Below are positions 2,212-20,129 of a stretch of DNA of 64,000 bases, in pieces. A model generated the notes under the pieces. That model searched no databases, was not told the DNA's origin, and was given only the letters and a program-made list of their open reading frames with translations. The DNA is from Elusimicrobiota bacterium. Lineage in GTDB: Bacteria > Elusimicrobiota > Elusimicrobia > UBA1565. The stretch spans positions 32,001 to 96,000 of the forward strand of contig JBDRPD010000087.1 of NCBI GenBank assembly GCA_043827405.1, given 5' to 3'. The stretch's first letter is position 1. The number at the start of each line of letters is the position of its first letter. Both the position numbers and the translations under genes were made by a program.

Positions 2212-2538
2212 CTACCAGGTAACGGTGTAGACCGCCAGCTTGCCGTCGGCGGCATTCGAGGCATCCTTGCAGGCGATGCTTACGGTCGGCCCCTTGTCCC
2301 CGGAAAAGTCGCAGGAGGTCGCGCTCTTCGCCGCCGGGTTGCAGGGGGTGCCCTTCCACTCCTCGTTTTTCTGCGCCATGCAGGCTTCCACCCAGCTCCG
2401 GTTCTCTTCGCTGGCCTTGGTGCGGGAAAACAGGATATGGCTGCCGAATATGATCTGCAGCACCCCGGTCGCGAACAGCAGCAGGACCATGGACATCACC
2501 AGGACCTGCACCAGCGCGACGCCCGATTCGTTTCTCAT
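2212..2538 (-). CDS. Minor type IV pilin, PilX/GspK-like
   Basis: MRNESG|VALVQVLVM class III signal lacking Glu5; paired cysteines; coupled to upstream pilins. Confidence 0.7.
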   Translation of the reverse strand: MRNESGVALVQVLVMSMVLLLFATGVLQIIFGSHILFSRTKASEENRSWVEACMAQKNEEWKGTPCNPAAKSATSCDFSGDKGPTVSIACKDASNAADGKLAVYTVTW

Positions 2539-3203
2539 GGCGACTGTGAGAACTCCATATTAAACGTCGAATCCACTTTATGCTGGATCATCGGACTCTG
2601 GATATTAAGCGCGGGGATGATCATCTTGAAGTTCACCCGCACCTGATTGCGCTCTTGCACATCGTCGCCGGTGGCGCGGGAAAAAACGTTATTCATCTCA
2701 TCCTTTTCGACCTTGGAGGCAAGGAGCATGCCGCCGGAATCGACTCCACAGGCGCCGATGGACGGCGCCGCCGTGCCGGTACCGGAATAGCGCCACAGGC
2801 AGCGCGGCTCATGCTGCCCGCCGGCCGTACAGCGTCCCGGCACCTCGTCGCTCACGCAGTAGTAGAACCAGGAGACGTTCTCGCTGGCGGCCACCTGCGT
2901 CCAAGCATTCGGCGCCGGCTCATACGTGGGCGCGTAGTTTTTAAATCCGCTGAGCACGTCGTTCCGGCCCCCGAGCACCGGAGTGTCGAGCCGCGTCGCA
3001 GCGTGCAAATCCTTGTCTATCCAACGCATCGCCACCAGCCCCATATTTCGCAGCCTGGTCTCCCGCAGTATGCGGTAGCCCTGGCGGTAGGCCGTCGAAT
3101 AGATGACCGAAAGCCCGGCGATGACCATGGCGAATATAAAGATCGCGATCATCAGCTCGATGAGGGTGAAGCCGCGCCGCCGGAATAGCATGGTCCGCAT
3201 CAT
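2535..3203 (-). CDS. Type IV prepilin-like protein, PilW-like
   Basis: RRRG|FTLIELMIAIFIF prepilin cleavage/methylation motif. Confidence 0.85.
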   Translation of the reverse strand: MMRTMLFRRRGFTLIELMIAIFIFAMVIAGLSVIYSTAYRQGYRILRETRLRNMGLVAMRWIDKDLHAATRLDTPVLGGRNDVLSGFKNYAPTYEPAPNAWTQVAASENVSWFYYCVSDEVPGRCTAGGQHEPRCLWRYSGTGTAAPSIGACGVDSGGMLLASKVEKDEMNNVFSRATGDDVQERNQVRVNFKMIIPALNIQSPMIQHKVDSTFNMEFSQSP

Positions 3204-3661
3204 TGCTGCCAGGTCACGTTGAAGATGACCTTATGTCCATCGCCGACCTTGGTCACCGTATAAGTCAGGCGCATCTGAATACTTGAATCGTCGCGCTCAC
3301 GCACCGGCAGCAGCTTGGTCACATTATGCTGGCAGACATCGAGCGCATAGCAGTCGGCGGGACAGTTGCCCACGGCGTAATTCCCCGAGGGGCCGCACTC
3401 GTCCTCGGGAATTTTCCACTTGGCCGTGGGTCCGGAAATATTCTGGTCGTCGGTCACATAGGCCTTGATTTTCTCTCTCGCCTGGGCGATAGCCAGCAGC
3501 GCCGCGGTCCGGCGCTCGGTTCGGACCCCCGAGATTTTGGACGTCAGCGCCAGCGAGAACACCGAGGTGACGACCACGGCGATCAACAGCACCGCTATCA
3601 TGGTCTCCACCAACGAAAACCCTTTGCGGCTTTTTAGTTTTTTTCTTATTATTGCTGGCAT
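3200..3661 (-). CDS. Type IV prepilin-like protein, PilV-like
   Basis: KSRKG|FSLVETMIAVLLI motif; start placed at ATG 3661 downstream of a sigma70-like promoter. Confidence 0.85.
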   Translation of the reverse strand: MPAIIRKKLKSRKGFSLVETMIAVLLIAVVVTSVFSLALTSKISGVRTERRTAALLAIAQAREKIKAYVTDDQNISGPTAKWKIPEDECGPSGNYAVGNCPADCYALDVCQHNVTKLLPVRERDDSSIQMRLTYTVTKVGDGHKVIFNVTWQQ

Positions 3662-3711
3662 TTTCTTAAACAAATACCAAGCAGCCCAGCAAGCGATGGG
3701 AGCCCATTTGA

Positions 3712-3740
3712 AGTTTAACAGCATCGTATAGCACCGTCAA
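3712..3740 (-). promoter_or_regulatory. Sigma70-like promoter of the minor pilin operon
   Basis: TTGACG-N17-TAAACT on the minus strand. Confidence 0.65.
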
Positions 3741-3750
3741 TACCCTGCTG

Positions 3751-3780
3751 TTGTCAGAGCCCGGGATAGAATGATAAAAT
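3751..3780 (+). promoter_or_regulatory. Sigma70-like promoter of tRNA-Cys
   Basis: TTGTCA-N18-TAAAAT with extended TGn, 9 nt before the tRNA. Confidence 0.6.
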
Positions 3781-3789
3781 CACCGTATT

Positions 3790-3863
3790 GGTGCGATACC
3801 CAAGTGGTTTAAGGGGCGAGTCTGCAAAACTCGTATTCATGGGTTCGAATCCCATTCGCACCT
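3790..3863 (+). tRNA. tRNA-Cys (GCA)
   Basis: Acceptor stem GGTGCGA/TCGCACC, anticodon arm CGAGT-CTGCAAA-ACTCG, T-arm ATGGG-TTCGAAT-CCCAT, U73 discriminator; CCA not encoded. Confidence 0.97.
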
Positions 3864-3899
3864 AAATTTTTTCTCAAAACCCGCGAAAAACCTGTTTTC

Positions 3900-3929
3900 T
3901 TGCTCTATTTCCGGCAAATTTGATACTAT
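3900..3929 (+). promoter_or_regulatory. Sigma70-like promoter of the nucleotide biosynthesis operon
   Basis: TTGCTC-N18-TACTAT with extended TGn. Confidence 0.6.
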
Positions 3930-4011
3930 TTTCCTCGACGAGAACGCCGATATTCACGGCGTCCCGAGAGGGAGCAAGGGCCGTTACCTTTTAATGCCCC
4001 ATCCGATCCTC

Positions 4012-4059
4012 AAAACCGCCGGCAGCACCTGCGTCCCGTTGTTGCCGCGCGGTTTTTTT
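4012..4059 (+). terminator. Intrinsic terminator/attenuator in the guaB leader
   Basis: Stem AAAACCGC-CGGCAGCA / TGTTGCCG-C-GCGGTTTT followed by a T7 run, just upstream of the AGGAGG RBS. Confidence 0.75.
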
Positions 4060-4082
4060 ACATCTCCAGGAGGTTGCACAAT

Positions 4083-5246
4083 ATGCCCGTCTTTATAGGT
4101 CGCGATCGGGAAGCCCGGCGCTGCTACGGCTTTGATGAGATCGCCATTGTCCCCGGCAATGTCACCGTGGACCCGGAAGAGGTCGATACCACTCTGCGCT
4201 TCGGCGATGTTGAGCTAAAAATACCTTTTCTCGCCTCGGCGATGGACGGCGTTGTCGACGTCGACTTCGCGATCGCTTTCGGCAAATGCGGCGGACTCGG
4301 AGTGCTCAACCTCGACGGCATCAATACCCGCTACGAGAAGCCCAAAGAGGTGCTCGCCGCCATCGCTTCGGCCAAGCCGGATGAGGCGACCAAGCTGGTC
4401 CAGGAGCTCTACCAGGAACCGACCAAAGAGCATCTGATCGCCCAGCGCGTCGAGGAGATCTGCAAAGCCAAGGTTCACTGCGCGGTGAGCACGATCCCCC
4501 AGAACGCGGACAAGTACGGCCCGATCGCCGAGGAGGCCGGCTGCGATGTCTTCGTCGTGCAGTCCACGGTCACCACGGTCCGCCACAAGTCGACGCGCTA
4601 CACTCCGTTTGACATCACCCAATTCTGCAAAGCGCGCAGGATCCCCGTCATCGTCGGCAACTCCGTCGGCTACAACGTGGCCATCGAACTCATGGAAGCC
4701 GGCATCAGCGGCCTGCTCGTCGGCGTGGGGCCCGGCGCCGCCTGCACTACCCGCGGCGTTCTCGGCCTCGGAGTCCCGCAGGTGACCGCGACCGTCGACA
4801 GCGCGGCGGCGCGCGACTTCTACTTCAAGAAGACCGGCCGCTACGTGCCCATCATCACCGACGGCGGCATGTCGACCGGCGGCGATATCTGCAAGGCGAT
4901 CGCCTGCGGCTCCGACGGCGTCATGGTGGGCTCCGCCTTCGCCCGCACCAAGGAGGCGCCGGGCCGCGGCTTTCACTGGGGCATGGCGACGCCGCACCAG
5001 AACCTCCCGCGCGGCACCCGCATCCGCGTCGGAGTCACGGGAACGCTCGAGGAGATACTCTTCGGCCCCTCCCGCCTGGACGACGGCAGCCAGAACCTGG
5101 TCGGCGCGCTCAAAACCTGCATGGGCTCGATCGGCGCCTCCAGCATCAAGGAGATGCAGCTGACCGAGGTTATTATCGCCCCGTCGATCCGCACCGAGGG
5201 GAAGATATTCCAAAAGGCCCAGCAGATCGGCATGGGGAAGTTCTGA
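4083..5246 (+). CDS. guaB: IMP dehydrogenase family protein, GuaB3-like with no CBS domains
   Basis: YGFDEIAIVP, ASAMDGV, GVGPGAACTTR (catalytic Cys), DGG and WGMA motifs; AGGAGG at 4068-4073. Confidence 0.9.
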   Translation: MPVFIGRDREARRCYGFDEIAIVPGNVTVDPEEVDTTLRFGDVELKIPFLASAMDGVVDVDFAIAFGKCGGLGVLNLDGINTRYEKPKEVLAAIASAKPDEATKLVQELYQEPTKEHLIAQRVEEICKAKVHCAVSTIPQNADKYGPIAEEAGCDVFVVQSTVTTVRHKSTRYTPFDITQFCKARRIPVIVGNSVGYNVAIELMEAGISGLLVGVGPGAACTTRGVLGLGVPQVTATVDSAAARDFYFKKTGRYVPIITDGGMSTGGDICKAIACGSDGVMVGSAFARTKEAPGRGFHWGMATPHQNLPRGTRIRVGVTGTLEEILFGPSRLDDGSQNLVGALKTCMGSIGASSIKEMQLTEVIIAPSIRTEGKIFQKAQQIGMGKF

Positions 5247-5250
5247 ACGC

Positions 5251-6777
5251 ATGATACTCATCCTGGATTTCGGCTCGCAGTACACCCAGCTCATCGCGCG
5301 CCGGCTGCGCGAGCTGGAAATCTACGCCGAAATCCTGCCCTACAACGCCGACCCCGCGCGCATCCGCGCGCTCAAGCCCAGCGGCTTGATCCTGTCGGGA
5401 GGACCGTCGAGCGTACACGCCGCGAAAGCCCCGCGTATTAGTAAAGAGCTGCTCGACGGCGGTATCCCGGTCCTGGGCATCTGCTACGGCATGCAGCTCA
5501 TGATCCAGATGCACGGCGGGCGCGTGCGCGCCGCCAAGGAGCGCGAATACGGCCACTCCCGAATCCGCGTATGCGGCGACGATCCGCTGTTTAAGGGCCT
5601 GCCGCGCGACATGGACGTATGGATGAGCCACGGCGACGGCGCGCAAGCGCTGGGCAACGGCTTCCGCGTTCTCGCCCGCACCCCCGCCGCCCCTTACGCC
5701 GCCATCGGCGATCCGGCACGGCGCTTCTACGGCGTGCAGTTTCACCCGGAAGTCGCGCATACGCCGCAGGGGGCGCGCCTGCTGCGCAACTTCGCGCGCG
5801 GCATCTGCGGACATAAGCCGCGCTGGACGCTGTCCAGCTTCCTGCACGACGCCGTCTCCGACATCCGCCGCACCGTCAGCCAAAAGAAGGTTGTGCTCGG
5901 GCTCTCGGGCGGCGTCGACTCTTCGGTCGCGGCGGCGCTCCTGCATCGGGCGATCGGCCGCCGCCTGCACTGCATCTTCGTCGACACCGGCCTGCTGCGC
6001 AAAAACGACCGCGAGCGGATGCGCGGCGTCTTCGCCAAAAACCTGGGCCTGAACCTGCGCATCGCCGACGCATCATCGCTGTTTTTACGGCGCCTGCGGG
6101 GCGTCGCCGATCCCGAACGCAAGCGCAAAATTATCGGCCGCGCCTTCATCGAGGTATTTCAGCAAGAGGCGAAAAAGCTGGGCGGCGTCGAATTCCTTGC
6201 GCAAGGGACGCTCTACCCCGACGTTATCGAATCGGTCTCGGTCCACGGACCCTCAGCGGTCATCAAGAGCCACCATAACGTCGGCGGCCTGCCCAAGCGC
6301 ATGAAGCTCAAACTCGTTGAGCCGCTGCGCATGCTGTTCAAAGACGAAGTGCGCAGCCTGGGCCGGGAACTGCGGCTGCCGGAAGAAGTCCTCGGCATGC
6401 ATCCTTTTCCCGGGCCGGGACTTGCGATCCGCGTACTGGGCTCCGTCACGCCGGCCGCGGTCAAGACCCTGCGCCAGGCCGACTGGATCATGCAGGAAGA
6501 GCTGCGCGCCGCCGGCTGGTACAACAAGATTTGGCAGGCCTTCGTCGTCCTGCTGCCGGTACGCAGCGTCGGGGTAATGGGCGACGCCCGCACCTACGAG
6601 AACGCGGCGGCGCTGCGCATGGTGGGCTCCAACGACGGCATGACCGCCCACTGGACGCGCCTGCCTTATGACCTGCTGGCCAAGATCTCGAGCCGTATCG
6701 TCGGCGAAGTTCGCGGCATCAACCGCGTAGTCTACGACATCAATTCCAAGCCGCCGTCCACGATTGAATGGGAGTGA
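5251..6777 (+). CDS. guaA: GMP synthase (glutamine-hydrolysing)
   Basis: LDFGSQY, GICYGMQ, QFHPE, SGGVDS and KPPSTIEWE motifs. Confidence 0.98.
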   Translation: MILILDFGSQYTQLIARRLRELEIYAEILPYNADPARIRALKPSGLILSGGPSSVHAAKAPRISKELLDGGIPVLGICYGMQLMIQMHGGRVRAAKEREYGHSRIRVCGDDPLFKGLPRDMDVWMSHGDGAQALGNGFRVLARTPAAPYAAIGDPARRFYGVQFHPEVAHTPQGARLLRNFARGICGHKPRWTLSSFLHDAVSDIRRTVSQKKVVLGLSGGVDSSVAAALLHRAIGRRLHCIFVDTGLLRKNDRERMRGVFAKNLGLNLRIADASSLFLRRLRGVADPERKRKIIGRAFIEVFQQEAKKLGGVEFLAQGTLYPDVIESVSVHGPSAVIKSHHNVGGLPKRMKLKLVEPLRMLFKDEVRSLGRELRLPEEVLGMHPFPGPGLAIRVLGSVTPAAVKTLRQADWIMQEELRAAGWYNKIWQAFVVLLPVRSVGVMGDARTYENAAALRMVGSNDGMTAHWTRLPYDLLAKISSRIVGEVRGINRVVYDINSKPPSTIEWE

Positions 6778-6787
6778 ACCTGTGACC

Positions 6788-7675
6788 ATGACCCTAGAAC
6801 GCTCAGAAGAAATCGGACTCAAGCTGGTGGCGCGCGGCAAGGTCCGCGACATCTACGCCCTCGGCGGCGACCGGCTGCTCCTGATCGCAACCGACCGCAT
6901 CTCGGCTTTCGACCATGTGCTGTCCCCGGCCATCCCCGGCAAGGGACGCATCCTCACCCAAACCTCCGCTTTCTGGTTTAACAAGATGCGGAAGGTGGTC
7001 CCTAATCACTTCATCTCGGCGGACCTCGGCGATATTCGCCGCTCCCTGCCGAAGACCGCCCGCCTGGACTCCGCGGAGTACGCCGGGCGCGTCACCCTGG
7101 CGCACCGCGCCCGGCGCATCGACACGGAGTGCGTTGTCCGGGGATATCTCGCGGGCTCCGCCTGGAGCGAATACCGGAAAACCGGCGCGGTCTGCGGCCA
7201 CCGGCTGCCCAAGGGGCTGCGCATGGGCGAGCGCCTCAAGCTGCCGATCTTCACGCCTGCGACCAAGGCCGATACGGGCCACGATGAGAACATCAGCCGC
7301 GAGCGGCTTGCCGACCTGGTCGGCTCCGAGCTGGCGTACGAGCTGGAAGTATACAGCATCCGCCTCTATACCGAAGCCGCGCAGTATCTGGACGAGCGCG
7401 GCCTAATCCTCGCCGACACCAAATTTGAATTCGGCTTTATCGACAACCGGCTTTCGGTCATTGACGAGATGCTGACGCCGGACTCTTCGCGCCTATGGGA
7501 AAAAGCGAAGTATCGGATCGGCCGGTCGCCGGCCAGCTTCGACAAGCAGTTCGTGCGCGACTATCTCGAAAAACAGGCCTGGAACAAGCAGCCCCCGGCT
7601 CCGACGCTCCCGCCGTCGGTCGTCGCCGGCACCACCCAGCGCTACCAAGAGGCGTATGAGAGGCTGACCCAATGA
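6788..7675 (+). CDS. purC: SAICAR synthetase
   Basis: GKVRDIY, TDRISAFD, ECVVRGY, DTKFEFG, DEMLTPDSSR and FDKQFVR motifs. Confidence 0.97.
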   Translation: MTLERSEEIGLKLVARGKVRDIYALGGDRLLLIATDRISAFDHVLSPAIPGKGRILTQTSAFWFNKMRKVVPNHFISADLGDIRRSLPKTARLDSAEYAGRVTLAHRARRIDTECVVRGYLAGSAWSEYRKTGAVCGHRLPKGLRMGERLKLPIFTPATKADTGHDENISRERLADLVGSELAYELEVYSIRLYTEAAQYLDERGLILADTKFEFGFIDNRLSVIDEMLTPDSSRLWEKAKYRIGRSPASFDKQFVRDYLEKQAWNKQPPAPTLPPSVVAGTTQRYQEAYERLTQ

Positions 7676-8190
7676 GCATCCAGCATAAACACAACGGCAC
7701 GGCGGTCAAGGTCCCCCCCCGCTACCGCATCGAAGTGGCGGCGAAATACGGACAGGATGACCCGCACGGCGCCGCCCTGAGCTCGCAGCTCGCGTCCATC
7801 GGGCTGCCCGCCAGCCTCGACGTCCGCGTCTCCTCGCTCTACGAGCTGATCGGAACGATGACCAAGCATCACATTCAGACGCTGTCCCGGGACCTGCTGA
7901 CTGATCCCATAACCCAGGAATTTCGCCTGGACGATACCGCCTCATCACCGGCCTTCCTCATCGGGCCCCACTGGCGCGTGGAGGTGTGGCTTAAACCCAC
8001 GGTGACCGATCCGACCGGCGAGAGCGTGCGCGAGGCGGTCGGCGATCTCGGTCTGCCGCGGCCGGAACAGGTGCGTACAGGAACGGCCTACCGCATCCTC
8101 GGCAACGCCCGGCGCCCGCAGATCGACAGGCTCCTCAACAAGCTGCTGTCCAACCCGCTGATCCACGAGACGATCGTGCAGGAGCTATGA
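7672..8190 (+). CDS. purS: FGAM synthase PurS subunit with two tandem PurS domains
   Basis: Two repeats (DDPHG..LLTDPI and TDPTG..LLSNPL); located between purC and purL. Confidence 0.85.
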   Translation: MSIQHKHNGTAVKVPPRYRIEVAAKYGQDDPHGAALSSQLASIGLPASLDVRVSSLYELIGTMTKHHIQTLSRDLLTDPITQEFRLDDTASSPAFLIGPHWRVEVWLKPTVTDPTGESVREAVGDLGLPRPEQVRTGTAYRILGNARRPQIDRLLNKLLSNPLIHETIVQEL

Positions 8191-10661
8191 AGACCGCTGC
8201 GCCGCCGCCGCCCGTCAAGACCGTCGCCGCCAGCCCTTGGGAGGAGCCTTGGCTCACCGCGCCCCTGGCGAAACTGACGGCGGCCGACGCCCGCTGCGGC
8301 TGGTCGCTCAACGCCGAAGAGCTCAAGACGATACAGGCGCACTTCCGCACCCTCGACCGCGAGCCGACGCACGCCGAGATAGAGACCATCGCCCAGACCT
8401 GGTCGGAGCACTGCAAGCACAAGACCTTCACCAGTCCCATTTGCTATCAGGAAGGCCGCAGCAAAAAGCGCTATAAAAGCCTGCTCGACGAAACGATCAA
8501 GGCCGCGACCAAGCGCCTCAATAGAAGTTGGTGCCTCTCCGTCTTTTCCGACAACGCGGGGGTCGTGCAATTCGACAAGAAATGGGCCCTCGCCTACAAA
8601 GTCGAGACGCACAACCATCCCTGCGCCATAGAACCGTACGGCGGCGCGGAAACGGGCGTGGGCGGCGTGATCCGCGACATTCTCGGCGTAGGTTTGGGCG
8701 CGAAACCCATACTCAATACCGATATCTTCTGCTTCGCCCCGCCCGACTATAAGGGCACGCTGCCCAACGGCACCCTGCACCCGCGCCGCACCATGAAGGG
8801 CGTGGTCTCAGGCGTCCGGGACTACGGCAACCGCATGGGCATCCCGACGGCCTCCGGAGCGATCTGGTTCGACGAAGCCTACCGGTTCAACCCCCTCATT
8901 TTTGTGGGCACGGTCGGTCTGATGCCGATCGGCGCCGTCAAGAAGCGCGTCGCCCCCGGCGACATCATCCTGGCGGTCGGCGGCCGCACCGGCCGCGACG
9001 GCATCCACGGCGCGACGTTCTCCTCCGCCGACCTCAACGGAAGCGAGGGAGCGTCCGTGGTTCAGATCGGACACGCGATCAATGAGAAGCGCATGCTCGA
9101 CGCCCTGCTGCGCGCGCGCGACCTAAAGCTCTACCGCGCGCTGACGGATTGCGGCGCCGGCGGCTTCTCTTCGGCGATCGGAGAACTGGCCGTTGACGCC
9201 GGCGCCCGCGGCGGCGCGAACGTTCAGCTCAAAGGCTCCCTACTGAAGGCGGCGGATCTCGATCCTTGGGAGATATGGATATCCGAATCGCAGGAGCGCA
9301 TGGTCCTGGCCGTCCCGCCCAAGAATCTTAAAGCGATCCAGGACCTGTTCGCGACGGAAGGCGTCGAAACCTGCGCCCTGGGCGCCTTCGCCAACACCGG
9401 ACGGCTTACCGTCCGCCACGATGGAGAAACCCTCGTGGATCTGGACCTGCGTTTCCTGCACAACGGCCTGCCGCGGCGCGAACGCAGCGCCGTATGGAAC
9501 CCGCCGGCGAAAAACGGCGCGGTCAAACGCGGCGGCCGGGAAGACGTACGCCGCCAAATACCCGATATTCTGCGGTGGATGCTCGCGCACCCCAACGTTT
9601 GCAGCCGCGAATGGGTCATCCGCCAGTATGATCACGAGGTTCTGGCCGGCACGGTAGTCAAACCGCTGCACGGCCTGCACCATGACGGCCCGGGCGACGC
9701 CAGCGTTTTCTGGCCGACCGCCGTCACCGGCGAAACGAAATCCTATAGGGGGCTGGCGGTCTCCCACGGCATCAACCCCAACTACGGCAAGATCGATCCG
9801 CACGCCATGGCGCTGCTCGCGGTTGACGAGGCCCTAGGCAACCTGGTCTGCGTGGGCGCGGATGTAAGCCGGGCGTCCATGCTTGATAACTTTTGCTGGG
9901 GCAACCCGGACGACCCGCAGACTTTGGGCGCGCTGGTGCGGGCCGCCCAAGGCTGCCACGATGCCTCGATCGGCTATGGCGTGCCGTTTATTTCCGGCAA
10001 GGACAGCCTCAATAATGAGTACACCGACCCCAAGGGCGTCCGGCACGCGATCCCGGGCACGCTGCTAATATCCGCGCTCGCCCCGGTACCCGATATCCGC
10101 AAAGCGGTCACCATGGATTTCAAGAATCCGGGCAACCCCATCTACCTGGTCGGCGCCACGCGCGACGAGCTCGGCGCGTCCCTATACGCCGAGTGGAGCG
10201 GGAAGCACGAAGGACGCCTGCCCGCGGTCGACTGCAAATGCGCCCGCGCGACGCTGGCGGCGGTACAGAACGCGAGCGCCAAAGGCGTTGTGCGCAGCGC
10301 CCACAACCTCTCCGAGGGCGGGCTGGCGGTCGCACTCTCCGAAATGGCGTTCTCGGGAGACATCGGCGCCCAGATCGACCTTGACCGCATGCTCCGCGCC
10401 AAGGAAATCTGCGACGAGGCGACGCTGCTGTTCTCGGAATCGCCGAGCCGGTTCCTGCTTGAAATAGACGCCGATAAGGAAAAGACCATCGCCAAGCTGT
10501 TCCGGGGAGTCCCGCTGGCGCGTATCGGCGCCACCATCGCCAACCCCGTCCTGCGCATCGTCAGCCTCGACGGACGGCTGTTGATGGAGGAAGGAGTACG
10601 CGAGCTCAAGGCCGCCTGGAAAGAGACGCTGCCGACCATGCTCGACGGGAGGAAACGATGA
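8187..10661 (+). CDS. purL: FGAM synthase synthetase subunit
   Basis: TWSEHCKHK, ETHNHP, GRDGIHGA, DCGAGG, SESQERM and ISGKDS motifs. Confidence 0.97.
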   Translation: MKTAAPPPPVKTVAASPWEEPWLTAPLAKLTAADARCGWSLNAEELKTIQAHFRTLDREPTHAEIETIAQTWSEHCKHKTFTSPICYQEGRSKKRYKSLLDETIKAATKRLNRSWCLSVFSDNAGVVQFDKKWALAYKVETHNHPCAIEPYGGAETGVGGVIRDILGVGLGAKPILNTDIFCFAPPDYKGTLPNGTLHPRRTMKGVVSGVRDYGNRMGIPTASGAIWFDEAYRFNPLIFVGTVGLMPIGAVKKRVAPGDIILAVGGRTGRDGIHGATFSSADLNGSEGASVVQIGHAINEKRMLDALLRARDLKLYRALTDCGAGGFSSAIGELAVDAGARGGANVQLKGSLLKAADLDPWEIWISESQERMVLAVPPKNLKAIQDLFATEGVETCALGAFANTGRLTVRHDGETLVDLDLRFLHNGLPRRERSAVWNPPAKNGAVKRGGREDVRRQIPDILRWMLAHPNVCSREWVIRQYDHEVLAGTVVKPLHGLHHDGPGDASVFWPTAVTGETKSYRGLAVSHGINPNYGKIDPHAMALLAVDEALGNLVCVGADVSRASMLDNFCWGNPDDPQTLGALVRAAQGCHDASIGYGVPFISGKDSLNNEYTDPKGVRHAIPGTLLISALAPVPDIRKAVTMDFKNPGNPIYLVGATRDELGASLYAEWSGKHEGRLPAVDCKCARATLAAVQNASAKGVVRSAHNLSEGGLAVALSEMAFSGDIGAQIDLDRMLRAKEICDEATLLFSESPSRFLLEIDADKEKTIAKLFRGVPLARIGATIANPVLRIVSLDGRLLMEEGVRELKAAWKETLPTMLDGRKR

Positions 10662-11431
10662 AAGCTCCCAAGATAATGATCCTCCGCACCGCGGGCACGA
10701 ATTGCGACGTGGAGACCGCCGCCGCCTTCAAGCTGGCCGGCGGCGCCCCCGAGATGGTCCATATCCGCGAGCTGAAAACCGGGAAGAAAAAGGTCTTCGA
10801 CTACGCCATCCTGGCCATCCCCGGGGGCTTCTCCTACGGAGACGACGTCAGCGCCGGCAGAATCCTCGCCAACGAGATCCGCAACCGGGTAAAGGATATC
10901 CGCGCCTTTATCCGCAGCGGCCGCCCGGTACTGGGTATTTGCAACGGCTTCCAGGCGCTGGTCAAGGCGGGCATCCTGCCGTACTCTCCCTCCGGCGAGC
11001 AGGTAGCATCGCTCGCCCACAACGACACCAACCGTTTCGAAACGCGCTGGGTACGGCTGCGGCTCAATCTGCAGAGCCAGTCGCTGTTCACGCAGGGGCT
11101 GCCGGAAATCATCGAGCTGCCCGTCGCGCACGCGGAAGGCAGGTTCGTCGTGAAGTCGCCCAAGATTCTGGAGACGCTGAAGAAGAGCCGCGCGATCATC
11201 ATGCAGTACGTCAACGAAGAGGGCAAATTTTCCGGCTTCCCCTACAACCCCAACGGCTCGCTGTTTAATATCGCCGCCATCACGAACCCCGAAGGGAACT
11301 GTCTGGGGATGATGCCGCATCCCGAGCGCTACACCACGCGCTACCATCATCCGAGCTGGACCCGGCACACGTTCGTGAAGGACGGGGTCGGTCTGGAAAT
11401 TTTCCGCAACGCCGTAAAGTACGTAAATTAG
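10658..11431 (+). CDS. purQ: FGAM synthase glutaminase subunit
   Basis: GTNCD, PGGFSYGD, GICNGFQ and GMMPHPER motifs. Confidence 0.97.
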   Translation: MKAPKIMILRTAGTNCDVETAAAFKLAGGAPEMVHIRELKTGKKKVFDYAILAIPGGFSYGDDVSAGRILANEIRNRVKDIRAFIRSGRPVLGICNGFQALVKAGILPYSPSGEQVASLAHNDTNRFETRWVRLRLNLQSQSLFTQGLPEIIELPVAHAEGRFVVKSPKILETLKKSRAIIMQYVNEEGKFSGFPYNPNGSLFNIAAITNPEGNCLGMMPHPERYTTRYHHPSWTRHTFVKDGVGLEIFRNAVKYVN

Positions 11432-11454
11432 CCGGCCCAGGAGGTGGCGGATCG

Positions 11455-12891
11455 ATGTGCGGTATCGTCGGCATTGCCGATCACAAGGATGCGTCTCAAC
11501 TCGCCTATCTAGGCCTGTTCGCGCTGCAGCACCGCGGCCAGGAGGCCGCCGGCATCATCATGTCCCATCGCGGACGGCTCGCCGGCCGCATCGCGCTGGG
11601 GCTGGTCGCGGAAGCGTTTCCGGAAGCGGCGCTCAGGAGCCTTAAGGGACGCACGGCCGTCGGCCACGTGCGCTACGCGACGGCGGGCGGCGGGGGTTTG
11701 CGCAACGCCCAGCCGCTCGTTTTCGCCACCCGCCACGGCCAAATCTCCGTATCGCACAACGGCACGCTGACCAATGCGCTGTCGCTGCGCCGCCGCCTGG
11801 AGCGCGACGGCGCGATCTTTCGCAGCACGACCGACAGCGAGGTCGTGGTGCACTTGATCGCCCGCCGCCAGGGAACGGTGGAGCAGGCGATCGCGGAATC
11901 CCTGCGCCTCCTGGAAGGCGCCTACTCCTTCATCTTCCAAACTCCCGACAAGCTCATCGCCGCGCGCGACCCCCTGGGCTTCCGTCCGCTGTGTCTCGGC
12001 CGGATCGGGCGCGCCTACGTCTTCGCCTCCGAGACCACGGCGCTTAATCACATGGGCGCGCGGCTGGTGCGCGAGATCGAGCCCGGCGAGATCGTGATTG
12101 TCGAAGGGCGCAAGCTGCGCAGCCTGCGCATTCTCGCTCCCCGCCGTGCTTCCGCCTTTTGCGTGTTCGAGCAGATTTACTTCGCGCGGCCCGACTCCAC
12201 CGTCTTCGGCCGCAGCGTACACGCCACGCGCCGCGCCCTCGGCCGGGAGCTGGCCCGCGAGATGTGGGGGCTGGAAGCGGACATCGTTGTTCCCGTCCCC
12301 GACTCCGGAGTCACCGCGGCTCTGGGATTCGCCGGCGAGTCCGGCGTACCGCTTGAGCTGGGCTTCGTACGCAGCCACTACGTTGGACGCTCCTTCATTC
12401 AGCCGGCGCAGATCCTGCGCGACAGCGCGGTATCTCTCAAGCTGGCGCCGGTGCGGGAGATTCTTAAGGGCAAGCGCATCGTGCTGGTGGACGACTCACT
12501 GGTGCGCGGAACAACATCGCAGCGCATCTGCCGCACCCTGCGCGAAGTCGGCGCCAAGAGCATCCACGTGGCGGTCTCCTCGCCGCCGATCATCTCTCCC
12601 TGCTACTACGGGATAGATACCCCGAGCGAGAACGAGCTGCTGTCGGCCAACAATACGCTGGAGCAGACCCGCCGCTTCCTGCATGCGGACTCCATCCACT
12701 TCCTGAGCATCGAGGGGATGCTGCGCGCCGCGAACGCGCCGTGCCGGCGGCGGATCTTCTGCACCGCCTGCTTCACCGGCCGCTATCCGACGCGCATCAC
12801 CGATTTCAGGATCGGGGAAAGCGCGCGCTGCATCGCGCTGCGCAACGGCCGAGCCGCCGCGCAGCCGCCGGACCCGGCGGTCAGGGCATGA
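11455..12891 (+). CDS. purF: Amidophosphoribosyltransferase
   Basis: N-terminal MCGI, LQHRGQE, GHVRY, VDDSLVRGTT; Fe-S cysteines. Confidence 0.97.
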   Translation: MCGIVGIADHKDASQLAYLGLFALQHRGQEAAGIIMSHRGRLAGRIALGLVAEAFPEAALRSLKGRTAVGHVRYATAGGGGLRNAQPLVFATRHGQISVSHNGTLTNALSLRRRLERDGAIFRSTTDSEVVVHLIARRQGTVEQAIAESLRLLEGAYSFIFQTPDKLIAARDPLGFRPLCLGRIGRAYVFASETTALNHMGARLVREIEPGEIVIVEGRKLRSLRILAPRRASAFCVFEQIYFARPDSTVFGRSVHATRRALGRELAREMWGLEADIVVPVPDSGVTAALGFAGESGVPLELGFVRSHYVGRSFIQPAQILRDSAVSLKLAPVREILKGKRIVLVDDSLVRGTTSQRICRTLREVGAKSIHVAVSSPPIISPCYYGIDTPSENELLSANNTLEQTRRFLHADSIHFLSIEGMLRAANAPCRRRIFCTACFTGRYPTRITDFRIGESARCIALRNGRAAAQPPDPAVRA

Positions 12892-14168
12892 ACGTCTTAC
12901 TCATCGGCTCGGGCGGCAGGGAGCATGCGCTGGCGTGGAAGATCGCACAGAGCCCGCGGCTGGACAAGCTCTACGCCGCCCCCGGATCGAGCGCCATCGG
13001 CGCGCTCGCCGAATGCGTCGAGCTCAGCGTTGCGGACCATGGCGCAACGACGGCCTTTTGCCGCGAGCACCGGATTCATCTCGTCGTCATCGGCCCGGAA
13101 GAGCCGCTGGCCGCCGGGCTGGCGGACGCTCTGCATGCGGCCGGCGTCCCGGTCTTCGGCCCCGCGCGCGCGACCGCGCGCCTGGAATCATCCAAGGCTT
13201 TCGCCAAGGATTTCATGCAGCGTCACGGCATACCGACCGCCGCCGGCGCCGACTTTTCCGATCCGGGCCTGGCGCGACGAGCTCTGGCCGCCTCCGATTT
13301 TCCGCTCGTTATCAAGGCGGACGGCCTGGCCGCCGGCAAGGGCGTAATTGTCTGCCGGGACATGGCGGAGGCCGAGGCGGCCGTCGAAGACCTCATGCTC
13401 AAGGGCGCCCACGGCGGCGCCGGCCGCCGTCTTATTATTGAGGAATGCCTTACCGGACCGGAAGTATCGATCATGGGCCTATGCGACGGCAAGAGGTTCC
13501 TCGCCCTGCCCCCGAGCTCGGATCACAAGCGCCTGCTCGAAGGCGACCGGGGGCCGAACACCGGCGGCATGGGCGTCATCGCGCCGACGCCGCACCTGAG
13601 CGGGGAGCTCGCCCGCCGCGTGCACCGCGAGATCATCGACCCCGTGCTCGCGGGGATGCGGGCCGACGGCCTGCGCTTCAACGGAGTACTTTACTGCGGG
13701 CTGATGCTGACGGCCGACGGGCCGAAAGTCCTCGAATTCAACGTCCGCTTCGGCGACCCCGAAACCCAGGCGGTTCTGCCGCTGCTGCGCTGCGACCTGC
13801 TGGAATGCCTCGACGCGGCCGCCTGCGGCGATTTAAACGAACGCATTCTGCCGTGGGACGGCGCCGCCTTTAATGTGGTGCTGGCCGCGGAAGGCTATCC
13901 GGAAGAACCCATCACCGGACGCATCATCGAGGGCCTCGACGCCGAGATGGACGACGAGGCGCTGGTCTTTCACGCCGGCACGGTGCGGGTGAACGGAGAG
14001 TGGAAAACGAAGGGCGGCCGGGTCCTGAGCGTTACCGGGCTGGGCCGCAACCTGGCGGACGCCCGTGAACGGGCCTACGCCGCGGCGGGCAGGATCCGTT
14101 TCGCCGGAGCGCAGTACCGCCGCGATATCGGGCATCAGGCCATCCGGCCTATGGAGAAAACGGCATGA
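12888..14168 (+). CDS. purD: Phosphoribosylamine-glycine ligase
   Basis: GSGGREHAL, KADGLAAGKGV, GPNTGGMG and EFNVRFGDPETQ motifs; ATGA overlap with purF. Confidence 0.97.
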   Translation: MNVLLIGSGGREHALAWKIAQSPRLDKLYAAPGSSAIGALAECVELSVADHGATTAFCREHRIHLVVIGPEEPLAAGLADALHAAGVPVFGPARATARLESSKAFAKDFMQRHGIPTAAGADFSDPGLARRALAASDFPLVIKADGLAAGKGVIVCRDMAEAEAAVEDLMLKGAHGGAGRRLIIEECLTGPEVSIMGLCDGKRFLALPPSSDHKRLLEGDRGPNTGGMGVIAPTPHLSGELARRVHREIIDPVLAGMRADGLRFNGVLYCGLMLTADGPKVLEFNVRFGDPETQAVLPLLRCDLLECLDAAACGDLNERILPWDGAAFNVVLAAEGYPEEPITGRIIEGLDAEMDDEALVFHAGTVRVNGEWKTKGGRVLSVTGLGRNLADARERAYAAAGRIRFAGAQYRRDIGHQAIRPMEKTA

Positions 14169-14656
14169 GCGGAATCGGCGCAGCGATCATAATGGGAAGC
14201 GACTCGGACCTGCCGGTGATGAAGAAAGCCGCCGAACTGCTGGACGATTTCGCCGTCGGCTACCGGATGACGATCGGCTCGGCGCATCGCAGCCCGGAAT
14301 ACGTAGCGGAGTTTGTACGCGCCGCGGAACAGGACGGGGTCGGCGTTTTCATCGCCGCCGCCGGCATGGCCGCGCACCTGGCGGGCGCCGTGGCCGGCCT
14401 CACGACGCGCCCGGTCATCGGCGTGCCCATGGGCTCCAAGCTGGCGGGCTTCGACTCCCTGCTTTCCACGGTACAGATGCCCCGCGGGGTGCCGGTCGCC
14501 ACGGTGGCGATCGACGGCGGCGCCAACGCCGCCCTTCTTGCCGTGCAGATTCTGGCCCTGTCCGACAAGACGCTCGCCGAGCGGCTCACCGCGCACAAGA
14601 AGGAAATGGCGGCGGCGGTCCGCCGCCAAGCCGAAGCTTTGCATTCGCATGCCTGA
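14165..14656 (+). CDS. purE: N5-CAIR mutase / AIR carboxylase
   Basis: MGSDSD, SAHRSP, AAHLAG and [11 protein letters not shown] motifs. Confidence 0.95.
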
Positions 14657-15941
14657 CCTGCGCATCGCCAACGGCCTCATCATCGACCCCGCATCGGGGC
14701 TGGAAGCCCGCCGCGACCTGCTGGTCCGCCGGGGCAAGGTCGCCGCCATCATCCCCCCGCGCAGCAAAACGCCGACGGCCAGGATCATTGATGCCGCGGG
14801 CTGCTGGGTCGTCCCCGGACTGATCGATATGCATGTGCACCTGCGCGATCCGGGTACGCCGGAAGACGAGACCCTGGAGACCGGCACGCGGGCGGCAGCC
14901 GCCGGCGGCGTGACCACGGTGCTGGCGATGGCCAATACCCGGCCCGTCATCGACACCCCCCAACGAGTCCGCCGCGTCCGCGCGCATGCCCGGCGCCGCG
15001 CCGTCGTCAATGTCCTGGTCGCCGGCGCGGTAACCCGCGGCCTGCGCGGCGAGCGCCTCACCGCCCTCGAGCAGCTCGCCGCCGCCGGCGTCGCCGCCTT
15101 CTCCGATGACGGCCGTCCGGTCATGAACGCGGAGCTCATGCGGCAAGCGCTCCTGCGTGCCCGGCGGCTCAACCTGCCGGTGCTCGACCATGCGGAAGAC
15201 GACCATCTAACCGGCGACGGCGTTATGCACGCGGGCCGCCGCGCGACCCGGCTGGGGCTGCCCGGAATCCCCGCCGCCGCGGAAACTTTGATGGCCATGC
15301 GGGATATCGCGCTCGCCGAGCTCACGGGCGGCCGCCTCCACATCTGCCATGTCAGCTGCGCCGGCACGGTCCAGCTCATCCGGAAAGCAAAGAAGCGCGG
15401 AGCGCCGGTGACCGGCGAGGCCGCGCCGCACCACTTCACTTTGACCGACGCCGATATCCCGCGCGCGGGCGCCGATTACAAGATGAAGCCTCCGCTGCGC
15501 GGGCGCGCCGACCGCAAGGCTATCATCGCCGGCCTGGCGGACGGGACCCTGGACGCCATCGCGACCGATCACGCGCCTCACGCGCCCGCGAAAAAGGCGC
15601 GCGGCCTGCGCACGGCGCCGTTCGGCATCATCGGCCTGGAAACTTTGCTCCCCCTGTCGCTGGCGCTCGTCAGGCGCGGACAGCTGACCCGCCGGCGTCT
15701 GATCGAATTGCTCTCCGCCGCTCCGGCCGCGATCCTCGGCCTAAAGACCAAGGGGCATCTCCGCCCGCACCGTGCCGACGCTGATATTACGATTATCGAC
15801 CCGCAAGCGTGCTGGCGAGCCCCGCGCCGCGGCGCCTCGCGCAGCCGCAATACGCCGTTTGCCGGACGCCGGCTGCGCGGACGGGCCCGCGCCACTATCG
15901 TCGGCGGCGAAGTCGTCCATCTGCAGGAGGCCGTGCGATGA
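14649..15941 (+). CDS. pyrC: Dihydroorotase, class I
   Basis: [28 protein letters not shown] and ATDHAPH motifs. Confidence 0.93.
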
Positions 15942-16633
15942 GAAAATGCGCCCTCGGGCTGCTGCTCCTCGGCGCCGCTTTGGCCGCCTGCGATGACGGA
16001 GCATCGCAGCAGGAACCCGCGGAGGAAGCCGCGCCGGCGGGAAATGTCTCCTCGTCCGGCGGCGGCGGCGGACAGGTCAGCGTGCAGCGCAACCCCCAGG
16101 CGCGCGGCGCGATCGAAGAGCGCTACGAAAAGGCCCTGCAGTCCATAAAGAAGCGCGAGTGGGACAATGCGCATGACGAGCTGACCGACGCCCTCAAGCG
16201 CGGACAAGGCCACGCGATGGAAAGCGATATTCGCCAGCAGATCAAGGTCGCCGAGCAGGGCCTCCTCGCTCAGCCGACCTACGAGGCGGCCGACCTGATG
16301 CAGAACTCCGCCAATTTCTTTGGCCGCCGGGTCTCGGTGCGAGGAACCCTTGTCCCCGGCGGTAAAGTCGGCCGGGCATCCCATTACTTTTGGATCCGTA
16401 CCGCCCGGCGCAAAATCCAGGCCCGCTACGGCAAGCTCTCCCTCGACGACAAGAAGACCATCCTCCTGCTGAAGGAAGGAGCGCTCGTGCTGGGACGCGG
16501 CTCCCTGAAGGAGCCCTGGGGCACCAACCCCAACCCCTACCTCGAACTCTCTTATTTCCGGCTGGAAAAGCTCTCGCCGGAGCGCGCGGCGGCGCAAAAG
16601 AAGCGCCGCGCCGGCGAGCAGGATGCGCCATGA
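15938..16633 (+). CDS. Hypothetical lipoprotein
   Basis: [18 protein letters not shown] lipobox; ATGA overlaps on both sides; helical region followed by a beta-rich OB-like C-terminus. Confidence 0.75.
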   Translation: MRKCALGLLLLGAALAACDDGASQQEPAEEAAPAGNVSSSGGGGGQVSVQRNPQARGAIEERYEKALQSIKKREWDNAHDELTDALKRGQGHAMESDIRQQIKVAEQGLLAQPTYEAADLMQNSANFFGRRVSVRGTLVPGGKVGRASHYFWIRTARRKIQARYGKLSLDDKKTILLLKEGALVLGRGSLKEPWGTNPNPYLELSYFRLEKLSPERAAAQKKRRAGEQDAP

Positions 16634-17718
16634 GCCTCTACGAGCAGGTCCTGCGGCCGCTGCTCTTCCGCCTCGACCCGGAGACGGCGCACGACTGCGC
16701 GGCCCGCGTACTTGAGCTGGCCGGACGCACGCCCTTCGCATATGACCTGATCGCCGCCTCCCGCACCTTCAGCGACCCCGCGCTCAAGAGCGAAACGGCG
16801 GGGCTGCGCTTCCCCAACCCCGTGGGTCTGGCCGCCGGCTTCGACAAGGACTGCCGCCTCGCGGATATCCTGCCGGCTTTCGGTTTCGGCTTTCTGGAGC
16901 TGGGCACGGTCACCGCCCGCCCGCAGCCGGGCAATCCCAGGCCGCGCCTGTTCCGGTTCCCGAAATCCCGGGCGCTGATCAACCGCTTCGGCTTCAACGG
17001 CGCGGGCGCCGACGCGGCCCGCGAGCACCTGCGGCTCCGGCGACGGCGCCTGGTCCCGGTCGGGATCAATATCGGGCTCAACGCCGACGCGGCGCAGCAA
17101 GACGCTCCCGAGGAGTACGCGCGGACCTTCGCCAAGCTTTACCCGCACGGCGACTATTTCGCGGTCAACGTCAGCTCGCCCAACACCAGCGGCCTGCGCC
17201 GCCTGCAGGACAAGCTCGAGCTGGAACGTATCCTGCGCCGCCTGCAGGACCTCAACGGCGACCGCAAGCCGATCTTCGTCAAGCTCTCGCCCGATCTGGA
17301 CCTCGCGGCGCTCGACTCGCTGCTGCCCATGCTCGAAGCGCACGCCGCCGGCGTCATCTGCACCAATACCACGACCTCGCGGCCGGACGTTGACGACGAA
17401 GCCGCCGCCACCCGCGGCGGCCTGAGCGGCGCGCCGCTGCGCGACCTCTCCACCCTCATGATCCGTGAGATTTATCGCCGAACCGGCGGGCGGCTGCCCA
17501 TTATCGGCGTCGGCGGAATCTTCACCGCCGAAGACGCCTACCAAAAGATCTGCGCCGGCGCGAGCATTGTCCAGATTTACACTTCTTTCATCTACCGCGG
17601 CCCCGGGCTGCCGGCGGCCATCAACCGCGGCCTGGCGCGCATCCTGCGCGAGCAGGGGCTCAAGAATATCGGCGCGGCGGTCGGCCGCTCGCATACCGTG
17701 GGAACGGGGGCCGGATGA
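16630..17718 (+). CDS. pyrD: Quinone-dependent dihydroorotate dehydrogenase, class 2
   Basis: DPETAH, GLAAGFDK, NRFGFN, NVSSPNT, KLSPD and GGLSG motifs. Confidence 0.96.
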   Translation: MSLYEQVLRPLLFRLDPETAHDCAARVLELAGRTPFAYDLIAASRTFSDPALKSETAGLRFPNPVGLAAGFDKDCRLADILPAFGFGFLELGTVTARPQPGNPRPRLFRFPKSRALINRFGFNGAGADAAREHLRLRRRRLVPVGINIGLNADAAQQDAPEEYARTFAKLYPHGDYFAVNVSSPNTSGLRRLQDKLELERILRRLQDLNGDRKPIFVKLSPDLDLAALDSLLPMLEAHAAGVICTNTTTSRPDVDDEAAATRGGLSGAPLRDLSTLMIREIYRRTGGRLPIIGVGGIFTAEDAYQKICAGASIVQIYTSFIYRGPGLPAAINRGLARILREQGLKNIGAAVGRSHTVGTGAG

Positions 17719-18479
17719 CCGACGTTATCGTCGCGCTCGATGTGGACACCATACAGGAAGAGGAGCGCCTCCTGGATCAGCTGAAGGGGACGATCCGCTA
17801 CTACAAGATCGGGCTGCGGCTGTTCACCGCGCACGGCAAGCGCGCGGTTGATCTTGTGCACCGGCAGGGCGGACGGGTTTTTCTCGATCTCAAGTTCCAC
17901 GATCTGCCGCAGACCGTATCCGACGCCGTGCACGAAGCGCAGAAAATGCACGTCTATTCCTTAAGCCTGCACCTATCGGGAGGAATCGACATGCTGCACG
18001 CCGCGGCCGCGGTCCATCCGCGGCCGAAGCTATGGGGCGTGACGGTGCTGACCAGCTTAACCACGACCGACCTCCGCATTCTGCATCCCAAAGCCGCGGT
18101 GCACCCGACGGTACAGCGTCTGGCCAAGACGGGCGTCGCGCATAAAATCGACGGGATCATCTGCTCGGGGCAGGAGGTCGACCTCCTGCGCAAAAAGCTC
18201 GGGCCCGACACCTGCTTTATCACGCCGGGCATACGCCCGAAAGGCTACCAGCGCCACGATCAGAAGCGCATCATTACGCCGGGCGAGGCGGCGCGCCTGG
18301 GCATCCGCTTTGTGGTGATCGGACGGCCGATCACCAAGGCGAACAGCCCGCTCGCCGAGGCGCAGAAAATCCTCACCGAGATGAAGAACGCCGCGCCCGC
18401 GAGCCTTCTGGAAGGACCCGCGCGCGAAAGCGCGCCGGAGCTCGGCCGCAACCGGGAATTCAAAACGGAGGACGCGTGA
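17715..18479 (+). CDS. pyrF: Orotidine-5'-phosphate decarboxylase
   Basis: VALD, DLKFHDLPQT, VTVLTS, TPGIRP and GRPIT motifs. Confidence 0.95.
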   Translation: MTDVIVALDVDTIQEEERLLDQLKGTIRYYKIGLRLFTAHGKRAVDLVHRQGGRVFLDLKFHDLPQTVSDAVHEAQKMHVYSLSLHLSGGIDMLHAAAAVHPRPKLWGVTVLTSLTTTDLRILHPKAAVHPTVQRLAKTGVAHKIDGIICSGQEVDLLRKKLGPDTCFITPGIRPKGYQRHDQKRIITPGEAARLGIRFVVIGRPITKANSPLAEAQKILTEMKNAAPASLLEGPARESAPELGRNREFKTEDA

Positions 18480-19066
18480 ACAGCGACGAGCTCAAGGGCA
18501 TATTCCGCGACGCGGGCGCGCTTCTCAGCGGACACTTCAAGCTGTCGTCGGGCCGGCACAGCGGCCAGTATTTCCAGTGCGCGCTCGTCCTGTCCGACAC
18601 CCGGACCGCGCGCCTCCTCGGCGAAGAGCTCGCCGCCCTGCTGCCCCGCGAATGGGGCCGGCCGGAAACGGTCGTCGGGCCGGCCCTGGGCGGGGTGATC
18701 ATCGGCCACGAGACGGCCCGCGCCCTGAACGCCCGCTCGATCTTCACTGAAAGAAAGGACGGAAAGATGTCTTTGCGGCGGGGCTTCGCGGTGCGCCCGG
18801 GAGAGAAAGTCCTCATCGTCGAGGATGTCGTCACCACCGGAAAATCCTCCGGCGAAACAGCCGCGCGGCTGCGCGAACACGGCGCCGTTGTTATCGGCAT
18901 CCTCGGCATCGTTCAGCGCGGAGCGGAAGACCCCGAGCTCGGCCTCCCCGTCCGCTGTCTGGCCCACCTGCCCGCGGTGAGCTATGAGGAAGCGGACTGC
19001 CCGCTGTGCGCCAAAGGCATTCCCGTTGTTAAGCCGGGCAGCCGCACAAAGGAGACCCCATGCTGA
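18476..19066 (+). CDS. pyrE: Orotate phosphoribosyltransferase
   Basis: GHFKLSSGRHS, VEDVVTTGKS and KPGSR motifs. Confidence 0.95.
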   Translation: MNSDELKGIFRDAGALLSGHFKLSSGRHSGQYFQCALVLSDTRTARLLGEELAALLPREWGRPETVVGPALGGVIIGHETARALNARSIFTERKDGKMSLRRGFAVRPGEKVLIVEDVVTTGKSSGETAARLREHGAVVIGILGIVQRGAEDPELGLPVRCLAHLPAVSYEEADCPLCAKGIPVVKPGSRTKETPC

Positions 19067-20028: not shown

Positions 20029-20032
20029 TGCC

Positions 20033-20110
20033 GGTACCGGTTATTAACATTAACTTTTGGTTCGAATTATTTATGGATATGCTCAAAAGTTAATGTTAAT
20101 AACCGGTACC
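20033..20110. repeat. Perfect 27-bp inverted repeat with a 24-nt loop, AT-rich
   Basis: GGTACCGGTTATTAACATTAACTTTTG (20033-20059) and its exact reverse complement (20084-20110). Confidence 0.95.
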
Positions 20111-20129
20111 AAAGGCTAGGAGTTTAATT

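Follow-up and report, generated by a model that had tools for sequence, protein, structure and literature searches.

Attenuation in which a ribosome coupled to RNA polymerase senses a nucleoside triphosphate (NTP) is described for UTP in pyrBI and for ATP in mgtM (PMC5021804, PMC3641672). The pyrBI operon of Escherichia coli, with its leader pyrL, combines UTP-sensitive pausing with coupled translation, and tight coupling prevents the hairpin (PMC5021804, PMC3641672). In Salmonella, mgtM of the mgtCBR leader senses ATP by coupling, with conserved positions and a peptide that is not conserved (PMC3641672). Start-site switching is described for pyrC and pyrD of E. coli, and GTP-dependent start selection together with attenuation for the yeast IMP dehydrogenase gene (PMC6524683, PMC6620469). 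No bacterial guaB or purine operon under such control was found in a full-text literature search that reached few subscription papers, and Elusimicrobia are unmentioned in the part of PMC13323073 available.

The leader described here precedes guaB3 in an Elusimicrobiota genome of 4.33 Mb and 63% G+C; "the window" denotes the whole stretch of 64,000 nucleotides that was analysed. As in pyrBI, a short leader ORF overlaps an intrinsic terminator ahead of nucleotide synthesis genes; unlike pyrBI, the AUG lies only 7 codons from the stem, there is no clear Shine-Dalgarno sequence and no U-rich pause stretch, the first gene encodes IMP dehydrogenase in a mixed pur/pyr run, the predicted signal is GTP or NTPs in general, and the sequences are not alike. 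With mgtM the leader shares an unconserved peptide at conserved positions and, as proposed here, the sensing of a purine NTP through coupling, whereas mgtM lacks an intrinsic terminator, carries a conserved A run and alternative stem-loops, induces on high ATP, and controls virulence and transport genes. The pyrC/pyrD and yeast IMP dehydrogenase systems resemble it in a G start among pyrimidines near the -10 box and in GTP sensing at an IMP dehydrogenase gene, but they act at initiation and predict no fixed AUG-to-stem distance, and the conserved partner of a 5' hairpin is not seen here. PyrR attenuators, the IMPDH motif and the purine, ZTP and ykkC-type riboswitches also place a leader terminator before nucleotide synthesis genes, whereas this locus has no Rfam match and no PyrR was found in its genome. 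The leader may well be a ribosome-coupled attenuator of the pyrBI kind that responds to shortage of an NTP, most likely GTP, a reading whose chance falls just short of even.

Gene run and neighbouring elements

The features of the locus, all on the forward strand, are as follows.

3790-3863, forward: tRNA-Cys(GCA), the gene next upstream, preceded by a promoter-like site of its own (3751-3780); found in only some relatives
3900-3929, forward: predicted sigma-70-type promoter, -35 box TTGCTC (3900-3905), extended -10 TG (3921-3922) and TACTAT (3924-3929)
3937-3940, forward: predicted transcription start, GACG following a pyrimidine run
3944-3962, forward: 5' hairpin in the fold of the leader, with a conserved GCCGA motif (3946-3950)
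3978-3999, forward: GGGC/GCCC hairpin (3978-3981 with 3996-3999), closing over the leader AUG
3994-4098, forward: leader ORF of 34 codons, its AUG 22 nt before the terminator stem; it spans the terminator and stops 13 nt into guaB3, in a different frame
4016-4059, forward: hairpin shaped like an intrinsic terminator, stem 4016-4052 and U7 4053-4059, -20.3 kcal/mol
4041-4051, forward: weak putative match to the elemental pause consensus in the 3' arm, G-10 at 4041, C-1 at 4050 and G+1 at 4051, which would predict a pause ahead of GTP addition
4069-4073, forward: Shine-Dalgarno sequence GGAGG of guaB3
4083-5246, forward: guaB3 (IMP dehydrogenase), first gene of the run, TIGR01304 at 439.6 bits, over the cut-off
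5251-22316, forward: rest of the run, namely guaA, purC, purS, purL, purQ, purF, purD, purE, pyrC, an ORF without family, pyrD, pyrF, pyrE, purM and purN-purH

The run comprises 16 genes (4083-22316), which we infer from their abutting arrangement to form one transcript. The titled protein records closest to its GuaB3 are 77-83% identical and come mostly from Elusimicrobia or Elusimicrobiota. The order of the run is kept among relatives: guaB3 is followed by guaA in 31 of 33 loci tested, of the 16 family genomes with guaB3, 15 have purC downstream on the guaB3 contig, and pyrF shares a contig with guaB3 or guaA in 8 of 17 genomes, many of these assemblies being fragmented. The original prediction of a regulatory leader with a premature terminator before a mixed purine/pyrimidine operon is supported, hairpin and operon order both being kept across the family. 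Its wording, the "whole" operon, goes too far: the further pathway genes looked for, pyrB, pyrG and purA, lie outside the guaB3 run, so that the run holds most, not all, of both pathways. By eye, pyrB has no leader of the guaB3 type, and pyrG and purA each lie within another gene run.

Several other elements of the neighbourhood were recorded. The ORF between pyrC and pyrD (about 15938-16633) looks by eye to carry a lipoprotein-like signal and matches no Pfam or NCBIfam family, and PurS (7672-8190; 172 aa) contains two PurS-domain stretches. Divergent type IV pilin-like genes with prepilin cleavage motifs occupy the minus strand at 2535-3724. An AT-rich element of about 80 nt (20033-20110), with terminal inverted repeats of about 27 bp and a variable centre, lies between purM and purN-purH; its arm has 34 matches in the genome at up to 3 mismatches, which make up about 16 paired elements, spread over 13 contigs, and in addition a tandem pair on contig C36. 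From its sequence it looks like a member of a MITE- or REP-type family, and it could interrupt or modulate the operon.

Promoter and 5' part of the leader

The predicted promoter boxes were read from the sequence and are kept in homologues; a consensus promoter scanner did not pick up the site at 3900-3929. In the 22 leaders extracted, a start motif G(A/T)CG (GCAG in one genus) lies 6-8 nt past the -10 box, and families f1 and f3 have in common a promoter-like TG-n-TAnnnT box, a pyrimidine run and a G start. Counted from the predicted start G3937, the window's leader is 146 nt long. In f1 and f3 the part ahead of the AUG measures anything from 7 nt, in one genus, to about 100 nt.

The window's leader is structured, as had been proposed: it folds better than 200 of 200 shuffles (z -3.96), and the hairpins reported as ACGCCG/CGGCGT (3944-3962), TCCC-GAGA-GGGA (3962-3973) and GGGC..GCCC are correct in letters and coordinates. 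Hairpins similar by eye to GGGC/GCCC occur in L002, L011, L139 and L181 and are missing from short leaders; covariation was looked for in this hairpin (3978-3999) and none was seen.

Terminator and search for an antiterminator

The terminator originally placed at 4012-4059 is confirmed as a G-C stem followed by a U tract. Its counterparts in f1 and f3 are hairpins of 34-42 nt with energies of -17.5 to -26.4 kcal/mol and 5-9 U in the next 10 bases, the U tracts being weak (5-7 of 10) in genera g2 and g10; the hairpin is lost in g7 and two other leaders. In alignment A2, both bases have changed in 8 of 12 stem pairs; pairing holds in 75.7% of cells and falls to 34-53% when the partners are slid. 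None of 500 shuffles reaches the covariation score of the A2 stem, but a slide of +3 equals it. RNAalifold on a MAFFT alignment gave no consensus structure because the stems were out of register, and a first RNA model gave no pairs either. By its sequence, the leader terminator is real and conserved in the family; it most likely works in the manner of pyrBI, through the conserved AUG, and membership of the pyrBI type would hinge on translation and NTP dependence.

Folds that avoid the terminator were worse by 6.3-15.7 kcal/mol in all 18 leaders compared, and for the window's leader the best such fold of any kind is about 16 kcal/mol worse. In permutation tests, neither the AUG region nor the whole upstream part paired better with its own 5' arm than with those of swapped lineages (p = 0.47 and 0.48 with 12 leaders; p = 0.50 and 0.65 with f1 leaders alone), and an antiterminator formed by AUGCC or GCCG pairing was rejected on these results. 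The cost of terminator-free folds and the lack of covarying upstream pairing together indicate that the hairpin needs a blocker other than RNA pairing. A riboswitch, as originally suggested, is unlikely: no covarying antiterminator was found, conservation is confined to short motifs, and in one genus only 7 nt precede the AUG.

The switch first envisaged rested on an octamer occurring twice, with the segment 3970-3979 able to pair with either copy. Both copies are present, at 3959 and 4031, but such a repeat is no more frequent than chance, being found in 15% of 5000 dinucleotide shuffles and in 31% of 5000 random 128-nt windows of the genome. The two folds are mutually exclusive on paper, but the alternative is energetically uncompetitive with the terminator: with the 3' end at 4040, when the 3' arm has yet to be made, pairing of GGGA (3970-3973) with the terminator loop falls 2.8 kcal/mol short of the best fold, and after completion of the stem the shortfall is 19-20 kcal/mol. 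The octamer occurs in none of 21 homologous leaders, nor does TCCCGAGAGGGA at up to 2 mismatches; GGGAGCAAGG was found in two of the 21 at two mismatches, both by eye downstream of terminators. With a chance-level repeat, a poor alternative fold and no carrier among 21 homologous leaders, the octamer switch was rejected.

Leader AUG and its reading frame

The best-conserved element of the leader, overlooked in the original prediction, is the AUG at 3994. Its position and the promoter-like boxes, hairpin and U tract around it can be read directly from the sequences, as can their conservation. In 17 of 17 f1 leaders with an intact hairpin, representing nine of the ten genera plus one unassigned lineage, an AUG lies 21-23 nt ahead of the first stem C. 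This count leaves out eight duplicate leaders and five without an intact hairpin, namely L006 (3' arm lost), L026, L032 (leader deleted), L141 and L155, and its stem anchor was picked by eye. When the best hairpin was called blind in 16 leaders, the distance was 21-23 nt for only 11 and 20 nt for one; in the remaining four it differed, either because the stem ran into the U tract or because another hairpin won. The G003 leader, outside the training set of the model and located by it 260 nt further upstream, has its AUG at 23 nt, and the three f3 leaders have theirs at 25, 24 and 14 nt.

The background for such spacing is low: 51 of 1315 terminator-like hairpins in the genome (3.9%) have an AUG at this distance, as do 1-14% of shuffles of the individual leaders. 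Three of 57 leader-type candidates in the window's own genome show it, the guaB3 locus among them. The AUG is invariant in nine of nine representatives, where the 12 nt upstream are 22% identical and the spacer 42%. Since the leaders are related by descent, these counts overstate the evidence.

The AUG would be a weak start. No real Shine-Dalgarno sequence precedes it, and its pairing with the anti-Shine-Dalgarno motif (the general motif, not one taken from this genome) is worth +1.5 to -5.0 kcal/mol, against -6.6 to -11.6 for guaB3. Of 12 representatives, 10 have an open leader frame (5 and 7 in the other two frames), no significant excess over the 8.2 that shuffles predict. Stop codons before the stem are absent from 20 of 20 leaders, which is not beyond chance, and a second reading frame is equally stop-free there. 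Neither the peptide nor its frame relative to the stem is conserved. The AUG is probably translated, to judge by its invariance, the variable third base of codon 2 and a fusion found in G013.

This fusion speaks for the AUG as a start codon. The locus concerned, L155 (G013:C13; leader at 32621-32721 on the minus strand), has lost guaB3, and its leader ORF continues in frame into guaA, for a protein of 540 aa that is extended by 33 residues; its terminator has decayed or been rearranged. The leader AUG, here with a better ribosome-binding site (-6.6 kcal/mol), is the only in-frame ATG, GTG or TTG before the conserved start of the single guaA of this genome. A match of canonical guaB type lies elsewhere in it, and the fusion is known from one assembly.

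Distribution and variants among relatives

The guaB3 upstream regions were gathered by protein or coding-pattern searches, independently of the leader. Family f1, that of the window, comprises 17 genomes in 10 genera; the leader model matched 14 of the other 16 of these, none of six f3 genomes and 5 of 38 f2 genomes, the last weakly and away from guaB3. Among 33 of the 35 other loci (mostly f2), 25 have a recognisable -10 box and just 35-50 nt to the guaB3 start, and in these 25 a terminator is absent by eye. In the window's genome, BLAST and pattern searches found no second copy of the leader, and leader RNA model R2 had a single match; a look-alike on contig C50 was dismissed, as it follows a tRNA.

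Individual loci depart from the common arrangement in several ways. In L032 (G012:C16, before 12928) the promoter and leader are wholly missing and guaB3 begins about 25 nt after tRNA-Cys, from whose promoter, to judge by the sequence, it would be transcribed. In L034/L181 (G003:C235, 15823-16086) about 260 nt separate the terminator from guaB3; this gap has a direct repeat at both ends and a palindromic centre and resembles an inserted element, and guaB3 is not followed by guaA in this genome. At the guaB3-guaA junction of L033 (G007), guaA carries an extension of about 50 residues from tandem duplication of about 50 nt. In f2 loci such as L014, L019 and L030 the leaders are short, 40-46 nt before guaB3; their first bases GTCG could pair with CGAC beside the Shine-Dalgarno sequence, a possible translational switch of the pyrC type.

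Search for known regulators

As originally judged by eye, the leader does not match purine, ZTP or ykkC-type riboswitches. A search against Rfam 15 gave no matches at E<=10 on 3860-4120, and scans of the window and ten homologous loci returned only tRNA, no leader matching at the gathering score. The locus is likewise unmatched by RF02994, the Rfam IMPDH motif; IMPDH is not mentioned in the main text of PMC5737381, as far as available. The best match to PurR of the Bacillus subtilis type reaches 37 bits against a cut-off of 259. Rho is encoded in the genome. There is no run of control codons of the trp type, and with peptides and frames that differ among genera, only proline at codon 2 being frequent, neither the conserved control codons nor the alternative antiterminator of an amino-acid leader-peptide attenuator was found. 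Three RNA runs from the same study gave only short matches to the region, mostly less than 90% alike and none on the leader, and are uninformative either way.

Proposed mechanism and alternatives

A ribosome covers about 15 nt past its P-site codon; one parked on the leader AUG would therefore just miss the stem, and a few codons further on would cover the 5' arm. The AUG probably acts through a ribosome. With NTPs plentiful, polymerase would clear the roughly 45 nt from the AUG to the U tract before a ribosome loads on the weak start, the hairpin would form, and the transcript would be released near 4059. With GTP (or CTP) low, polymerase would dwell at the C-before-G steps of the stem while a ribosome loads and advances a few codons; close behind polymerase, this ribosome would cover the 5' arm and block termination, and the 16 genes would be transcribed. 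The position of the AUG would count, and the peptide and frame would not.

Two further observations bear on this scheme. Distance of terminators from stop codons is used as a proxy for coupled transcription and translation (PMC7858274, in the part available). Gene-end terminators in the window's genome lie at a median of 26 nt from the stop, 23% of 69 of them within 12 nt (a stricter set of 24 gives 12%, and two looser and noisier sets, of 167 and 321, give 34% each). Terminators away from stops lean towards coupling rather than runaway transcription in this genome. The elemental pause consensus is G-10 Y-1 G+1 (PMC12288461, in the part available), and all 11 representatives, which are kin, have a match within the final 8 bases of the stem, against 53-66% of terminators matched for YG steps. 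With C4050 before G4051, low GTP would be the likeliest trigger, and the sign of the response would be right for a guaB-first operon, but a G-rich run answering to the U runs of pyrBI or the A run of mgtM was not seen. Given an AUG that acts through the ribosome, an NTP pool is the probable signal. A minimal form of the scheme is distinctly more tentative: an AUG and a terminator at 22-nt spacing might suffice as a GTP timer that switches on purine and pyrimidine synthesis with no aptamer, protein or conserved peptide.

The same translated AUG could instead serve a signal on the side of the ribosome, and all evidence for its translation applies equally to this alternative, which is unlikely and yet survives best. 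The ribosome would be uncoupled, and the operon shut at low translation capacity, whenever initiation or formation of the first peptide bond was slow, be it through a Met-Pro start, through ppGpp or through shortage of fMet-tRNA or amino acids. Codon 2 is proline in 8 of 10 lineages (CCC, CCT or CCG, the CC mostly kept and the third base variable), and proline is the slowest residue in peptidyl transfer (PMC5021804, in the part available); the dedicated G run that sensing of GTP might use was not seen, and the spacer from AUG to stem is G-poor. In the other two lineages, however, codon 2 encodes Ile or Leu and the spacing is unchanged, and Gln, Gly and Asp codons are not conserved. Nor would such a signal report purine supply back to the operon, a feedback that would seem necessary where guaB comes first and both PurR and PyrR are lacking.

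Next in rank, and also unlikely, is a small riboswitch or protein-bound element made of GCCGA and AUGCC, in which the AUG would be part of the motif and a weak antiterminator, GCCG or UGCC with GGC/GGU of the 5' arm, would be stabilised. Sixteen copies of GCCGA were counted in 12 leaders, against 2.7 in shuffles (none of 500 as high), up to three per leader and often in hairpin loops, an enrichment that the ribosome-coupled model leaves unexplained; several terminator-free folds allow the 5' arm to pair with UGCC or GCCG. Yet own partners pair no better than swapped ones, L003 and L033 lack AUGCC and still have the AUG at 22 nt (L033 also without an upstream GCCGA), and neither the variable length of the 5' part nor the Rfam result for the window's leader and the ten homologous loci suits such an element.

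It is improbable that the terminator is constitutive and leaky, capping expression or ending the tRNA-Cys transcript, with the AUG kept by descent alone. By eye there is no other terminator between tRNA-Cys and the leader in the window, and family f2 lacks the element and some f1 leaders have decayed, as this account would allow. The hairpin, however, sits behind the operon's own predicted promoter and 10 nt before the Shine-Dalgarno sequence, it is present where no tRNA was found (L004, L005, L011, L139, L181, L008 and L009), and the AUG and its distance stayed unchanged while the adjoining bases diverged.

Start-site switching of the pyrC type is more improbable again. The CTP/GTP ratio would select a C or a G start, altering a hairpin at the 5' end and access of the ribosome to the leader AUG (in f2, to the guaB3 start), the mechanism being as for pyrC in the available part of PMC6524683. 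In f1, f3 and part of f2 the predicted start retains a G with nothing but pyrimidines ahead of it, and a hairpin from bases 1-3 forms in many leaders, but by eye an extra 5' C lengthens it in few of them, the place of the partner strand is not fixed, and the window's 5' hairpin begins at base 8.

A PyrR-dependent attenuator, the other form of regulation first proposed, can be set aside as very improbable, since the loose likeness of 3961-3979 to the PyrR loop then quoted is outweighed by a binding-loop consensus unmet at 2 mismatches in 22 of 22 leaders, by RF00515 matching nowhere in the genome, and by a PyrR search that reached the cut-off in none of 17 family genomes (the window's own assembly, which lacks 2% of the genome, giving HPRT as its best match).

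Significance

If the reading as a ribosome-coupled attenuator is true, 16 nucleotide genes would be under feedback control by about 70 nt in a lineage without PurR, PyrR or a purine riboswitch. The leader would be a very small, portable regulatory element, and the fixed distance from AUG to stem suggests a search rule for regulators missed by structure-based motif searches. It would also provide an argument from sequence for tight coupling of transcription and translation in a little-studied phylum.
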